Origin: an uncultured Pseudomonadota bacterium
GTDB taxonomy: Bacteria > Oederibacteriota > Muellerivitia > Muellerivitales > Muellerivitaceae
Length of the DNA: 64,000 bases
Direction: 5' to 3'
Assembly (NCBI GenBank): GCA_963843375.1
Contig: CAWJKT010000010.1
Coordinates: forward strand, 128,001 to 192,000
Positions 47,682 through 60,260 of this stretch are shown here, piece by piece; position 1 is the first letter of the stretch; each line of letters starts with the position of its first letter. The position numbers and the translations under genes were made by a program. The notes beneath the pieces are model-generated. The model saw only the letters and a list, made by a program, of their open reading frames with translations. It ran no database searches and was not told the DNA's origin.

Positions 47682-50600
47682 ATGAAGTTTTTTTCCCAGA
47701 TCCTGCTCATTCGGTTTCTTTTTTCTTTCCTTTTATTTTTATTTGTTGTCGGATCGAAAGCCCAAGACCTGGGTTTCGGGCCCAATAAGGTCCGGTACCA
47801 CGCCGATCATCATTGGAAAATCCTCGAAACCGCGCATTTTCAAGTTTATTATCTACGATAAATGCGAAGTACTTACACAAACTGCGGCGGATGACGCCGA
47901 AAAAGCTTTCTTAAAAACCTGCCAAGCCTTTAATTTTGTTCCCCGAACCAAAATCCCATTATTTGTTTATGCTACGCCTATGGAATTCGAGGAAACCAAT
48001 ATCACGCCCGAAATATTACAAGAAGCCGTAGGTGGTTTTACCGAAGTGTTTAAAAACCGGATCGCCGTTCCTATGGATGGTTCCTATCACGAATTCGAAA
48101 AAGTTATTCATCATGAATTGACCCATGCCTTCCAATACGATTTGATCTATGGGGAAGGATGGAGGTCGGTCAATTTATTCAAAGCCGTTTTCGTTCCCAA
48201 TGGATGATGGAAGGAATGGCGGAGTGGAACGCCCAACATCTTGGATGGTCAAGGCGAAATGGTTTTAAGGGATGCAATCCTAAATGACCAAGTGATGCCC
48301 CTCAATCTGATGGAATCTTTCGATCATTTTGAGCAAGTTTATATTGCTTATAAAGAATCCCAGAGCCTATTGGATTATGTCACCCAGGTTTACGGGGAGG
48401 GAAGAGTAGTCCAAATTTTCAAGCGAATGGCGGCAAACCAGCCTCCGGATACCGCCATTAAAAACGTTTTAGGGATTTCCCTTAACGATCTTTACAACAA
48501 TTGGCATTTTTATATGAAATCGCAAACTTGGTCAAAAATCAGTGGAATGCCGGTGCCGGAACGTTACGGCGAATGCCTGGAAAAAGACGTCTTCAAGTCA
48601 ACTGTCTCTCCTGATGGAAAAGAAATCGCAATCCTCAAAAACGAGGAGTTGGATTTATATGATGTGGCAACGAAAAAAAAGAGGAAAATCTTAAATCGTC
48701 ATTTCGGAATACAAGGGTCTGGCTTGGCTTGGTCTCCGGATGGAAATTTCCTGGCATTTACCGCCAGCCAGGAAGGGGAGTATGGACTTTACAAATTGGA
48801 AATGAAAAATCTTCACCTTTCGGAATGTCCCTTAACCGGGCTTCCAATGGTTTACTCCCCAACCTGGTCACCCGATCAGCGGTATATCATTTTTTCGGGA
48901 TTCGACTATAAAACGGTTGATTTATACCGATACGAATTGGCTACAAAACATGTAGACCGTTTGACAGACAATCAAGCAAGTGAATCTTGGGCTTCTTATT
49001 CCGTGGATCAAAAATCTCTTTATTATTTATCCGAAGAGGATGGAAATACCCAAATAAATAAGTCACTTTGGGAGATAATGGATTACCCCGAGGCCAGCCT
49101 ATTGACGATCGGTAAAGAACTCGGAACGATTTCCTGTTTTCGAGTTACGAAAAAATGCGATCTATTTCACCTCAAATCGGGATAAAGGAATTTTTAACTT
49201 GTATAAAATGAGTCTCGATGGCGACTCCTTAATCCAATTAACCCATACTTTTGCAGACATTTTAAATGTTTCTCCATCCCCGGATGAGTCGGTTTTTTAT
49301 GCAACTCTTTATCAACATTCCAAAGAAAATCTTTATGCCTGTCCAGCGGAAAAGTTGGAAAAAAACGAAAACCCCCCCTTCAATTTAAAATATATCGCTA
49401 ACTCGTTTGAAATCGCGGGTAAAATTCTCCCTGAAACTGCCTCAAAAGACACCGTTAATGATTTTGAGATACCCCTTAACTCCGACCATGATCGGGACGA
49501 ACCAGAAGTCGTCAGGAATAAAAAACCGCCGACCCAACCCCCCGCCGTTGTCACCCATTTGGAAGTATCGGAAGCAACAAACCTCGTCCAACTTCAATGG
49601 CCCGCTCTCAAATGCCGAAACGGATTCGGTTGATAGTTACAAAATTTATCGATCTACTTCAGCTGGCGCAAGATTTGCCTATCTCGCCACAACCTCCAAC
49701 ACAAAACAAGGGCGATATGTGGATTATGACGTTCAAAACAACGGAACTTATTTTTATTACGTAACCGCAGTTAATAAAATGGGGGAGAGCGATCCATCTC
49801 CCATCGCCGAAGTTCACCCCTCCTTTAAAATGACTTCGCACGATTATCAATTAACCCTCTCACCCGACATTCTTCTTTTTTTGGCGGGGTATGACAGTTC
49901 TTTTGGATTTGTCGGAGGAGGAATCGCCCAAATGAGCGATTATTTAGGCGATCAGCAATTGGGCATATCTAGGTGACACCATTCCCGGAGTCCAAACGGG
50001 AATCCAGGCAGATTATGAGTTTTCTCAATGGCGGACAACGGTTGATTTGGATTTTTTTTATTATCAAAATTATTTTAACATTTACGATCTTCAAACCGGC
50101 GACATCGTTAATGAATACCGAAACAACGAAAATGGATTTTCACTGAATTTCAGTTATCCGATCAATACCAGCACCCGGGTTGAATATGGGGTGGGAACAC
50201 AGCGGTTTTTAGGAAGTCCCATTTATCTTCAGTTTTCGGAAGGAATATCTAATTATTCCCTTAACACCGATCAATGGAATGTGGCAAATTACTATCGACT
50301 CTCTTTTGTTCAAGACAAAAGAAAAGGAACCCAATTTTGGCCCAGCAGTGGTTACGCCTTAAATTTCACGCTTTTACACGCCTTGCCTGTTTTGGACTCG
50401 AATGTTTCGTTTGCCAATCTGCTTTTTGAAACACAGACTTTTGCCGACATCAGTTTTTTAAACCATTTAATTTGGGCAAATCGTTTCATCGCCATGACAT
50501 CCCAAGGCCCAAATCCCCAGACTTTCTTCATTGGAGACGACGCCCCCTTCCAGGCTTATTTCACGACCATCCGAGGTTATGGAGCGAGTACGTTTTTCGG

Positions 50601-50911
50601 AAGTAACTTAGGCCTCCTGAACACTGAATTGCGCTATCCCATCGCCACAAACATGAATTTCATACCGCAGCCTCTTTCCTTTTTCTTGATCAAAGACATT
50701 GAATTGGCCGCTTTCATGGATGCGGGTATCGTGTCCAACCAATTACAAGATTTTTCAGATTCCCAAGTTTTAAGCAGTATCGGAACCGGCATCCGTTTTT
50801 ATACTTTTCTTTATCAAAGGGCTTTGGTTATGTTCCGATTTCGATGTTGCCTGGCGATTGGACCAATCTCTTCCGCCCACATTTCATTTTAACTTAGCCC
50901 CAATGTTTTAA
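47682..50911 (+). CDS. Peptidase MA-like + PD40 propeller + FN3 + Omp85/BamA barrel protein, broken by multiple frameshifts
   Basis: FGPNKVRY, HHELTH..WMMEGMAEW, WSPDG repeats, YKIYRS..YYVTAVN, IRGY, ELRYP, GTGIRF, C-terminal Phe; at least 7 frame changes. Confidence 0.75.
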
Positions 50912-51035
50912 GTTAAACCGGGCGTATTTCCCATTTTGCGTTTGGGGAAGATGGTAAAAAGCAGTTGGTGACTCCCAAGGGAGCCGTTATAATGAGGCGC
51001 TTCAAAACGATCTTAATCCTTTAAGGAGCCGGTTT

Positions 51036-51699
51036 TTGAAAAAACTCATTATCTTCTTCACTTTTTTTGATTCTTTTGTTAACCAGCTCAATAATTGCTA
51101 AGCCCGCTCCAGATTATTTCATTTACAAATTATGAATCAACCGATTTGGACTTTTTAAGGTCCCATTACACCGAGATAAACAACGGTCGGCTTATACAAA
51201 TTACCGGTTATTTCTCCTCCTACAAATGGTTGTCTCCTTACGCTTACCAGGAACGCTTAAGTGCAATCGGCGACAATGTTAGGGATTACAATCTTTTGCA
51301 GTTTACGATCGAAGAAAAGGATAACTTCCATTATTCATTCCCGATTCTTTTGATCCACACAAGCGTCGGAGATCTTCACGAATTGGAACAATTGAAAAAA
51401 GGAACAAAAATCGTGGTTTATGGAAAGTTTTATAATTTGAAAAATCAGAATACGCCATTGAAACCGACGTTATTGAAATGGCCAATGTTATGACCCGAGT
51501 TAATATTGAAGGAACACCTTCTTTTGAAAATGGCGGTCACGATACGGAAGTCCTGTTGGATGCGCGAGTTTCGCCAACCGCAACTGTTACGCCTACTGTT
51601 ACACCGACTCCCGCGCCCAGTTTGTGGCAAAAAATTAATAATGTTATCAATCCCAAGGAAACCATTACCCCAACTGGAACGGTAACTCCAGGAACCTGA
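51036..51699 (+). CDS. Hypothetical exported protein with TPT tail, frameshifted
   Basis: AAGGAG RBS, TTG start; fragments 51095-51493 and 51478-51699 appear to join. Confidence 0.45.
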
Positions 51700-53579: not shown

Positions 53580-54218
53580 TTAAAGCGCACTGAGTTCTTG
53601 AGTATAAATCCAAGTGACCGGCAAGCTAGCAACGGGAACCACCAACGCAATTACAGAATATTGAGTTACCACGATTTCGGGTGTGGGAGTAACTCCAGGG
53701 AACGATGGGCCCACAATAGGATTATTATAAGTTTCCAATAAACATGAAACAGACATTTCGGTGGAGGTCCAGCATACACTTTGTGGAATGGTTCCAAAAC
53801 CAGGATTACCCGGGATTGGTTCGGAAAAGGTATAGGCCTGTACATTTATCAAAATCATTTGGGTACTAAAATTGACCGGAGGGGTGGGAGCGGAGGTGGC
53901 TCCATAATAGTTTTGCCAGTCTGAAAGGCTGCGAATGACGTAATCAGTCCCCGGGACAGGGTTTCCAATCGCCAAACCCGCTTCGGAATTGGGAATAGGT
54001 GGAGTCACTGGGGTAGGAATAGTAACAAAGCTGAATCCGCACCCAGGTGTAGAAACGAAGGTAACGGTAGCGGTCGCGGTTGGAGTTGATGTAAGGGTTT
54101 GTGTCGGGGTATTTGTCGGGGGTAAACCCGGAACCGGTGCAACTGGGTATTTCCGATCACAAGCCCAAGAAGCCAGGCCCAAAACTATTAAAAATAAACT
54201 GATAAGAAACTTTTTCAT
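53580..54218 (-). CDS. Lipoprotein with Thr/Pro-rich linker
   Basis: Lipobox-like SWAC; PTNTPTQTLTSTPTATAT; W..Y....PPVNF motif reminiscent of PrcB C-terminal domains. Confidence 0.6.
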   Translation of the reverse strand: MKKFLISLFLIVLGLASWACDRKYPVAPVPGLPPTNTPTQTLTSTPTATATVTFVSTPGCGFSFVTIPTPVTPPIPNSEAGLAIGNPVPGTDYVIRSLSDWQNYYGATSAPTPPVNFSTQMILINVQAYTFSEPIPGNPGFGTIPQSVCWTSTEMSVSCLLETYNNPIVGPSFPGVTPTPEIVVTQYSVIALVVPVASLPVTWIYTQELSAL

Positions 54219-54386
54219 GGACACTTTCTAATTCATATTGCTCAAATTATACCACTATTCAAAATCTTCAACTCGATAGTCCTCTAAAGAAAAAAAACTA
54301 AAGATTTTCGTGCTTTAATGGCGGGCTCAAGCTGTTTTTTGCTCGATTAGCAAAGCTATAAATTTTTGCTTGTTTTTTTTGTTTCT

Positions 54387-54414
54387 ATTTCATATAACTA
54401 TAATTATATGAAAT
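54387..54414. other. dif-like tyrosine recombinase site
   Basis: ATTTCATATAA-CTATAA-TTATATGAAAT: perfect 11-bp arms with 6-bp spacer. Confidence 0.8.
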
Positions 54415-55469
54415 ATAAAACAACTAATGAATCGCATAAACCGTCCGAAAACTTAAATGAGCTTGAACCTTACCAGGGTTTTCTTGCTCTGTGCAAATCC
54501 CATCACACCCATTACAACTATCATCAGGATCTACGGGTTTTAAAGCAATTTTTGGATCAAAGCGACATTTCAAATCCAGTAAAAGTTCAGCCTATCGATT
54601 TGACACGTTTCGTAGGCCAATTAACCAAGCCTGGGTTAACACCCACTGGCAAGGACCGGCCAGCCTTTTCAACCCGTTCCATGAAACGCATCTTAGCCTC
54701 GACTCGATCCTTTTATCGGTATTTAGCCACAACGCAACAAATCCTGTCTGATCCAACAGCCGTCTTTCATAACCTGGCAATCCGCAGCCCTCAACGCAAT
54801 CCCCACCCGTTGCCACTAAATGATCGTATGGCCCTAGTAAAAAGTCTTCAAACGGGCGATTTGGAGGGTCAAAAAATCAGCCTGACCGTCCTGCTAGGCT
54901 TCCATTGTGGTCTGCGAGTTTCGGAAATAACACATATTAAAATCCGGGATTTGGATCTAACTCAAGGACTTGTCACCGTCATAGGCAAAGGCGACAAGGA
55001 ACGTATTGTTCCGATGACGGAGGCCTTACGAGAGCTCCTTAAACTTCACTTGAACCAGATGGAAAAAAAGGGGCCTTATCTTTTTCCAAGTCCAAGAAAC
55101 AATCAAAAGCCTATCCATTTGCGATACCTTGAGTTGTGGGTCAAAAAAGCCGCTCAATGGGCTAATCTAGAGCACTCCAATGAGTTGACCGTCCACGTGT
55201 TGCGACACTCCTTTGGCACCCAATTGGCCGAATCGGGCGCAAGTGTCTATGAAATTCGGGACCTAATGGGCCACTCCAGCATCGTGGTCAGTGAAAATTA
55301 TGTAAAGCTTGCCTCAACAAAGGGCCGGCAGGCCCACCGAAAAGCTTTTGAGGAGGGCTACAAGGTCCATTCTTTGAATATGGGAGCATTATTTGGAATC
55401 GAATCGGTCTTGAAACGCTTCCGTGATATCAAGCGTAAGGCTTTACCGGGAAAACCCCAAAAGTACTAA
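54408..55469 (+). CDS. Xer-type tyrosine recombinase
   Basis: GLRVSE, GKGDKER, HVLRHSF, LMGH..Y catalytic set; N-terminal core-binding region. Confidence 0.92.
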   Translation: MKYKTTNESHKPSENLNELEPYQGFLALCKSHHTHYNYHQDLRVLKQFLDQSDISNPVKVQPIDLTRFVGQLTKPGLTPTGKDRPAFSTRSMKRILASTRSFYRYLATTQQILSDPTAVFHNLAIRSPQRNPHPLPLNDRMALVKSLQTGDLEGQKISLTVLLGFHCGLRVSEITHIKIRDLDLTQGLVTVIGKGDKERIVPMTEALRELLKLHLNQMEKKGPYLFPSPRNNQKPIHLRYLELWVKKAAQWANLEHSNELTVHVLRHSFGTQLAESGASVYEIRDLMGHSSIVVSENYVKLASTKGRQAHRKAFEEGYKVHSLNMGALFGIESVLKRFRDIKRKALPGKPQKY

Positions 55470-55906
55470 AAGTCCTTAAAAAGTCTCGAAATCGAAAACT
55501 AAGTCGTCTTTAAGTTTTTATTTATCAAATTAAATCTACTCTTCAATTAGGATCAATAAGGCCAAAACTGAGAATCCAATTTGGAAGAGCTCAAAACTAG
55601 TCGATTTTACATTTAAACTATGTTTATTTGAACGATTATTAACCAGTACCAATCTTTGTACCTTTCGCTCAAGGGTCTAAGTTCAGTCAAAATTCAGTCC
55701 GTTTAGACCTTCGTTAACCAGAATCAATTTTTCGAAATCAAACCTCGAATGGTAAAAAGAAGGCAAAAATAAGGAAAAGGCGTGATTATCCGTCCCGTAA
55801 TTTGCCAACAACCATTTTTAAATTTACCCACCCGTCCTAATTGGGTAAATTTCCTTTAAAATCCAGCCATTGAAAGATAGCTAAAGTTTTACTTTAAGGC
55901 GGCTTT

Positions 55907-60035: not shown

Positions 60036-60112
60036 TGGTCGGGGCGGCAGGATTTGAACCTGCGACCTTTTGCACCCCATGCAACTGCGCTACCGAGCTG
60101 CGCCACGCCCCG
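60036..60112 (-). tRNA. tRNA-Pro(GGG)
   Basis: CGGGGCG acceptor stem, TTGC-ATGGGGT-GCAA anticodon arm, encoded CCA. Confidence 0.93.
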
Positions 60113-60184
60113 ATGACCGTTAAATTTGAAAGATTTCCCTTGGAAAAACTGGGTTGATCATAAGACCAAGCCAGAATAGTTTTC

Positions 60185-60260
<76 letters not shown>

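Follow-up and report, generated by a model that had tools for sequence, protein, structure and literature searches.

An Xer-type recombinase gene standing alone, with a dif-like palindrome lying across its own start codon, raises the question of whether one enzyme acting at one symmetric site could provide chromosome dimer resolution for its host, as a sequence-only reading of the locus had proposed, or whether the palindrome is an operator, or the attachment site of a mobile element. The locus is in a 64,000-nt stretch of DNA (the window) from a 4.05-Mb, 80% complete assembly (G000); this and the other genomes compared are all MAG-type assemblies. As judged from comparative sequence analysis, it is very probably a single-enzyme chromosome dimer resolution module belonging to one order of uncultured soil bacteria. 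The proposal is strongly supported by the conservation of the site, the lack of canonical XerC/XerD in 25 of 25 genomes of the order, and a switch in strand polarity at the site in six of six genomes, together with the symmetry of the arms and their covariation with the protein. The features discussed are collected in Table 1.

Table 1. Features of the recombinase locus, in window coordinates.
Feature	Position	Strand	Remarks
Predicted -35 hexamer	54370..54375	+	Weak (3/6), 17 nt before -10; shared by 3/4 loci with the same arm type
dif-like recombination site and predicted operator	54387..54414	.	11-6-11, arms perfectly symmetric
Predicted -10 hexamer	54393..54398	+	Inner part of left arm and first base of spacer; ATA invariant in 44/44 sites
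Single Xer-type tyrosine recombinase, 353 aa	54408..55469	+	Orthologue in 31/32 genomes of the order
Codons 237-240 (H-L-R-Y), opening predicted outer-arm recognition helix 238-251	55116..55127	+	Model helix; alignment to XerD Q221 segment; mutual information
Polar flanking motif M2, ~37 bp, phased A/T tracts	55602..55638	+	Pattern search across genomes

The recombination site

The sequence at 54387-54414 is ATTTCATATAA-CTATAA-TTATATGAAAT, with perfect 11-bp arms (12 bp if 54386 and 54415 are counted) around a 6-bp spacer. The ATG at 54408 falls within the right arm, with the site covering the first 7 coding bases, so the perfectly symmetric 11-6-11 geometry over a start codon is as first described. 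A palindrome of this kind is not remarkable by itself, since G000 contains 37 perfect 11-6-11 inverted repeats, many of them terminator-like. Among 162 strand-matches to the dif-like core in the assembly, only the one at 54387-54414 has no arm mismatches, the runners-up having five. Short-read contigs from two other runs agree with the site without a single difference (X2, 53852-55176; X3, 54011-54641), and a diverged relative from a third study is identical from 54387 on, with its first mismatch at 54423. A GC-rich family of 28-bp 11-6-11 palindromes is also found in at least seven places on G000 contigs C4, C6, and C9.

Sixty-one recombinase loci were collected, of which nine have no upstream DNA and two are distant (33 and 39% identity) and have no site. 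A symmetric site lies upstream of the gene in all of the 50 that remain, as would be expected if site and orthologue are kept together; 44 are distinct once duplicates are removed. In 38 of these 44 sites, 10-11 of the 11 arm positions pair. For the outer six bases the mean is 5.4 paired, vs. 3.1 (maximum 3.9) after shuffling arms between loci. Inner arm positions 8-10/19-21 are invariant; the outer ones fall into five or more arm types and still remain paired, with positions 5, 6, 23, and 24 doing so in 40 of 44. One locus has arms of two different types. The spacer is identical in 23 of 44 sites after orienting, and kept but reversed in 12, including the window's own, which should be tolerable for a site recombining only with its sister copy. 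The site is wholly non-coding in 40 of the 44 loci; the ATG otherwise comes 0-15 nt after it, two of these starts being uncertain. In 27 of 32 genomes there is a single core site, adjoining the recombinase gene, and no duplicated dif such as integrated elements leave was found near the gene in these 27. It is thus a single-copy, low-GC palindrome of ~28 bp with a 6-bp spacer, like other Xer/dif sites. Matches to the site in phage sequences, one within an RNA-phage maturation gene and 13 in AT-rich contigs, were judged to be chance rather than dif mimicry.

The recombinase

The 353-aa protein has Phage_int_SAM_1 (core-binding) and Phage_integrase (catalytic) domains. Its catalytic residues, R170, K194/K197, H263, R266, H289, and Y298, already read as an intact R-K-H-R-H-Y set, are invariant across alignments of 28 and of 32 homologues. 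The predicted structure (pLDDT 84.9) is that of a two-domain tyrosine recombinase, with best fold matches to XerA, XerD, an integron integrase, and XerH. Scores are under every NCBIfam Xer cut-off (bits/cut-off: XerC 153/335, XerD 142/330, XerA 134/220, XerS 78/267); by profile, it scores 129 bits against XerD vs. 52 against the sequence of the XerH structure. Residues 74-89, within the N-terminal domain, are an insertion specific to the family, for which the model gives a small hairpin; that of the presumed XerL, at the same point, is longer.

In a quick tree, the recombinase and its relatives at 39-45% identity branch apart from canonical XerC/D (SH-aLRT 100, long branches); rows L001 and L011 of this tree are the same gene entered twice. 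These relatives (P0104-P0116) are a diverged sister group found on short contigs, and the one locus inspected (L251) has no site; they are possibly mobile relatives or a donor pool.

Distribution, and the fate of XerC and XerD

Of the 32 genomes of the order, 31, including all 18 of high quality, have an orthologue with 55-79% identity, and the sole miss is 63% complete; the best matches outside the order have 27-35% identity. Of five close matches carrying the orthologue, two are from records named as candidate division FCPU426. The neighbours are of housekeeping type and conserved, with an aminotransferase downstream in 51 of 60 loci and a hydrolase upstream in 45 of 60. The XerD model finds nothing above its cut-off in the 25 genomes of the order searched (best score 265 bits), vs. 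45 of 54 other genomes of the phylum, most of which also have a second XerD-model match at 295-331 bits; XerC in the phylum is read from these second matches rather than from its own model. The count of xerC/xerD homologues that the sequence-only reading had called for therefore yields no canonical pair in the order: there are neither two paralogues above cut-off nor asymmetric outer arms, and the recombinase is a vertically held core gene with no other resident Xer pair. The FtsK gamma domain is found in 29 of 32 genomes, SMC is also present, and G-rich octamers are strand-biased.

G000 has 14 tyrosine recombinase matches. Apart from the recombinase itself, these comprise, on inspection by eye, fragments, a trio element, and six phage-type integrases related to one another, with no canonical XerC/D among them. 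The six integrases are 370 aa long (one each on C6 and C9, two each on C8 and C11) and mostly follow a small excisionase-like ORF. The trio element consists of three consecutive tyrosine recombinase genes (C8:95.5-98.3 kb; L001, L010, L011), with a dif-like palindrome of 10-bp arms at its left end (C8:94927); there is a similar trio in G013 (C19).

Another reading is that the palindrome is merely the operator of a recombinase with some other job, dimers being resolved by different enzymes or not at all. The site does overlap the promoter (see below), and tandem XerC/D-like pairs scoring 194-265 bits occur in 7 of 24 genomes of the family. These pairs are however patchy, and multi-copy in some genomes; the four inspected adjoin a 705-785-aa ORF (with a weak CHC2 zinc-finger match in one of the four) and RHS-repeat genes (Pfam match, two tested), and appear from these surroundings to be mobile elements. 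An operator also has no need of a conserved 6-bp spacer or of a position at the terminus, and this reading is improbable. Many proteins of 600-870 aa consist of two fused recombinase units (P0120, P0123, P0126, P0129, P0132, and others), and are probably fused tandem pairs of the RHS-linked elements (L357-L360).

In the sample of 61 genomes from the phylum, only one GyrA/ParC-family gene per genome was found, and no separate topoisomerase IV subunit. That the Xer switch followed from a loss of topoisomerase IV was considered and rejected, a single gene being the rule throughout the sample.

Position at the replichore junction

Over 1.2 Mb, G003 has a single clean GC-skew peak, at 860.7 kb, 30 kb from its site at 831.0 kb; strand-biased octamers whose training sequence lay more than 60 kb off change polarity at 832.2 kb. 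In other genomes, the distance between the site and the switch of the G003-trained octamers is 2.2 kb (G000), 3.7 kb (G001), 1.0 kb (G013), 4.0 kb (G012), and 2.9 kb (G025). Octamers trained on other G000 contigs switch 0.3-7.7 kb from it in all six, so that with two training sets the polarity flip falls within 0.3-7.7 kb of the site in six of six genomes. On the window's own contig, the switch is at 180.2-184.1 kb and the site at 182.4 kb; the first 50 kb of this contig are foreign (70% GC) and were excluded. In four genomes the plain GC-skew maximum lies 19-30 kb from the site; G001 and G012 give no clear maximum. Both plain skew and the KOPS octamer are less sharp than the trained octamers. 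Oligomer switches are described as better terminus markers than GC skew (PMC5993296), and dif of L. pneumophila is placed 35-43 kb from the skew peak (PMC9765430). No dnaA match was found in G000, and the junction was placed by octamer switch and skew rather than by distance from an origin. A canonical xerC/xerD/dif at a skew switch elsewhere, which would have pointed to a mobile-element remnant here, was not found; the octamer switch is at the site itself in the six genomes.

Some features of the assembly should be kept in mind. Contigs C1, C4, C10, and C11 of G000 have ~70%-GC stretches fused to 48%-GC DNA, gyrA is in three pieces, and successive ORFs at 47743-51493 of the window look frameshifted.

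It is highly improbable that the recombinase belongs to a mobile element, as an integrase with its att site or a resolvase with its res site, or is a remnant of such an element: mobile elements do typically have gene and site together, as stated for xerS (PMC1914069), the slot upstream of the site accepts genes (an HNH-like ORF in G013, G020, and G021; a lipoprotein-like ORF in the window), and the module is bracketed by inverted copies of the M2 motif resembling element ends, but the recombinase is single-copy and in one syntenic place in 31 of 32 genomes, no duplicated site adjoins the gene, the site is at the polarity switch, the listed best matches among 19 plasmid and 42 phage records have at most 33% identity (plus one weak viral-contig match), and no joints of excised or reinserted forms were seen in four runs. 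An ancient mobile origin of the recombinase is likely; a present mobile role is not.

The upstream slot has a varied content. In three genera (L017, L018, L020, L226), a Cys/His-rich HNH-like ORF of 116-124 aa, with no Pfam match, lies between the hydrolase gene and the site; it could be a free-standing homing nuclease moving dif-xer alleles. In the window, the slot holds a Thr/Pro-rich lipoprotein-like ORF (53580-54224, reverse strand), also with no Pfam match; it is absent from the other loci, and has one weak paralogue on G000 C1. Downstream, genes for a sigma-70 factor, a MerR-type protein, and an HU/IHF-family protein are found 3-7 kb from the module, and two tRNA genes at 60039-60260 (reverse strand).

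Covariation of arms and recombinase

Mutual information (38 rows) ranks alignment columns 239, 237, and 240 as the three that tell most about arm type. The segment 237-240, which opens the model helix, aligns near the XerD Q221 segment, with a two-residue gap uncertainty and an inferred numbering offset. XerD Q221 is described as contacting dif position 24 (PMC2731167), and the equivalent helix of XerH as acting on the outer arm (PMC5241119). Among 39 rows, R239 goes with CA arms in 4 of 4 cases, D239 with GG in 16 of 17, N237 with AG in 7 of 7, and H237 with H or N239 with TC in 11 of 13; five rows were dropped from the corresponding tree (one truncated, four near-copies). N-terminal columns 36, 63, and 66 likewise track arm type, and five genera include differing types.

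The number of independent events is small. Just two or three residue-arm pairs are on well-supported branches of these quick trees, too few for a sign test to reach 0.05. In AU tests, a single origin was not rejected for arm types A, C, and D (p = 0.48, 0.28, and 0.18), but was for B (p = 0.024), so repeated independent origin of the arm types is not shown by these tests. On alignment evidence, the covariation is good evidence for this protein reading this site, and not proof of repeated switching.

Predicted promoter within the site and predicted self-repression

A TTG-initial hexamer is found 16-18 nt before the TATAA of the left arm in 32 of 44 loci, compared with 0-8 at shifted positions; from this spacing, the left arm is taken to contain the -10 box of the gene. 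The window's -35 is weak, and a generic promoter scan made no call there. With the -10 box so placed, the mRNA would be leaderless or nearly so at this locus, as the transcription start is predicted. The conserved promoter feature is the putative -10 box in the left arm, rather than the rare ATG overlap (4 of 44).

This changes the grounds for an earlier suggestion, that occupancy of the site could repress the gene: overlap with the start codon is too rare to be the basis, but the -10 box in the left arm supports it. The companion suggestion, that recombination at the site would swap the upstream region, does not hold between sister copies, where it has no effect, and would matter only for a foreign element integrating there. 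Such an element would part the gene from its -35, which may offer protection against integration at dif of the kind proposed for xerS (PMC1914069).

Proposed mechanism

In the dimer resolution module as we envisage it, one Xer-type recombinase would bind both arms of the symmetric 28-bp dif at the replichore junction. By analogy with the tyrosine recombinase family, four monomers would join two sister dif copies, and a single crossover across the 6-bp spacer would convert the chromosome dimer to monomers; FtsK, which is found in the order, probably delivers and activates the recombinase. Recombinase bound at the site would repress its own gene, since the site contains the gene's predicted -10 box. 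FtsK activation, self-repression, and protection against integration are put forward with less confidence than tetramer synapsis and crossover. With equal arms and the same protein on each, bases 5-6/23-24 would be free to drift jointly with residues 237/239, giving rise to at least five specificity types.

A flanking polar motif

M2 lies 112-167 nt past the recombinase stop codon in most loci. An inverted copy is usually found 107-260 nt upstream of the site, or ~460-490 nt where a gene is inserted; this copy is missing in G000, where a second copy in the same orientation is instead found 24 kb further on, outside the window (C10:207327). All 31 family genomes have the motif, in one to three copies (61 in total), vs. 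none for a reversed-pattern control. It was not found in the single genome of a second family, which retains the recombinase, and the one weak match in each of 3 of 54 other phylum genomes equals the control. Its information content is ~50 bits, and its A/T tracts are phased at 10.5 bp (74 copies, kin included). Of 52 copies on the same contig as the gene, 50 point away from the site, including 7 of 8 beyond 10 kb; nine more are on other contigs. The search pattern was built from gene-adjacent copies, so only the distal copies and the controls are independent of it.

Several simpler identities were rejected. No consensus RNA structure on either strand and no Rfam match was found, which argues against an RNA or terminator; a sigma-70 promoter was suggested by a 9-of-12 reverse-strand call in the window (one found, 3.6 expected) that is lost in most copies, and distal copies show no consistent orientation relative to genes. 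One pattern gave 18 phage matches, all scoring 22 or less vs. 35-57 for genomic copies, and those inspected are coding DNA of other phages; a stricter exact-match pattern gave none in phages. Half a copy is found upstream of the C6 integrase in G000 (C6:225581, score 19). As M2 lacks the dif core, the recombinase itself is unlikely to be its ligand. Among the 22 largest clusters of neighbouring genes, no conserved DNA-binding gene adjoins the module.

The reading we favour, tentatively, is that M2 copies are sites for a DNA-wrapping or terminus-organising protein, with an accessory role in Xer synapsis, FtsK arrival, or SMC unloading. Their fixed distance after the stop codon in most loci, the phased tracts, and the presence of SMC and FtsK are in keeping with this, as is the single GyrA/ParC-family gene per genome (in 60 other phylum genomes), by which unlinking may lean on Xer; against it, G003 and G025 have no copy nearer than 1.5 kb to the gene, and distal copies are up to 500 kb away. 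It is less likely that M2 copies are polar, Ter-like fork-trap sites bound by some other terminator protein, although their small number, their two opposed and mostly outward orientations about the terminus, their high information content without RNA structure, and the differing neighbours of distal copies would all suit such a role. Tus and RTP were not found in any of five genomes, while positive controls were detected. To be set against a fork trap are the one-sided arrangement in G000, G021, and G018, the two inward copies, the absence of M2 from the second-family genome despite its recombinase, the G013 flanks only 1.7 kb apart with a GC-skew peak 21 kb off, and the lack of a candidate protein among neighbouring genes.

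Implications

A search in which most subscription papers were out of scope found nothing on a recombinase of FCPU426 or on such a system. XerS, XerH, and XerL provide precedents for a single-recombinase Xer, a gene-linked dif, and perfect symmetry taken one by one; in the literature, supplements aside, none was found for canonical geometry and symmetry combined with operator function, arm types, and polar flanks. One could go further and see a whole terminus machine here: an independently recruited, self-repressing single Xer, with a dif specificity switched several times together with two helix residues, bracketed by polar sites of a third fork trap (neither Tus nor RTP) or terminus organiser. 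As a whole this is rather doubtful; within it, the arm types would be a natural recognition code, perhaps with dif-hijacking elements as the driver.

The dimer resolution module would be an independent case of one enzyme taking the place of XerC/D, the phylogenetic boundary being clear and lying within a single phylum. Where one protein reads a symmetric site, the asymmetry by which XerCD, XerS, and XerH order strand exchange is gone, allowing a direct test of where order and FtsK control originate, and a -10 box inside the site makes xerS-type autoregulation testable. At least five natural arm/residue pairs at ~70% protein identity offer a specificity code ready for use, and may yield small recombinases that are orthogonal to one another. 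M2 may be a new terminus signal, the known fork traps belonging to two protein families only.

Comparison with known systems

In having few, long, polar sites opposed about the terminus, M2 resembles Tus/Ter and RTP/Ter as described in PMC10331603; neither protein family was found here.

XerS/difSL of streptococci and lactococci is similar in its single recombinase, a site directly upstream of the gene, the replacement of XerC/D, and a position at the skew switch (PMC1914069), and autoregulation was speculated for xerS in the same 2007 account. The recombinase is not an XerS by score (78 bits, cut-off 267), and difSL is given as 31 bp with unequal arms (PMC5357621), whereas this site is 28 bp, 11-6-11, and symmetric. 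XerH/difH of Helicobacter and Campylobacter also pairs one recombinase with a site near its gene, and H. pylori is described as having no topoisomerase IV (PMC3325230), the genomes here likewise having only one GyrA/ParC-family gene. The arms of difH are unequal owing to an inserted base by which cleavage is ordered (PMC5241119), unlike the equal arms here, and the match to the XerH structure sequence is only 52 bits.

The sequence-only reading had implied that single-enzyme systems use symmetric sites; this is true of XerL only, difSL and difH being described as imperfect (PMC5357621, PMC9765430). The dif/XerL system of Legionella and Coxiella has one recombinase and perfectly symmetric arms, of 10 and 12 bp (PMC9765430). 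According to the same source, xerL is more than 400 kb from dif or plasmid-borne, and the arms of its sites are unlike those of other Xer sites; the only annotated integrase of the Coxiella plasmid, presumed to be XerL, matches the recombinase at just 25% identity (44 bits), which does not indicate orthology.

The sites of XerC/XerD and archaeal XerA share the 28-bp 11-6-11 layout, conserved inner arms, and variable positions 5-6/23-24 of the site described here. Pairing at these four positions, seen in 40 of the 44 sites, is rare in proteobacterial dif as described in PMC2731167. The XerA model is under its cut-off (134 vs. 220 bits), and XerA hosts lack the FtsK found in this order, but the best sequence and fold matches of the recombinase are to XerD and XerA.
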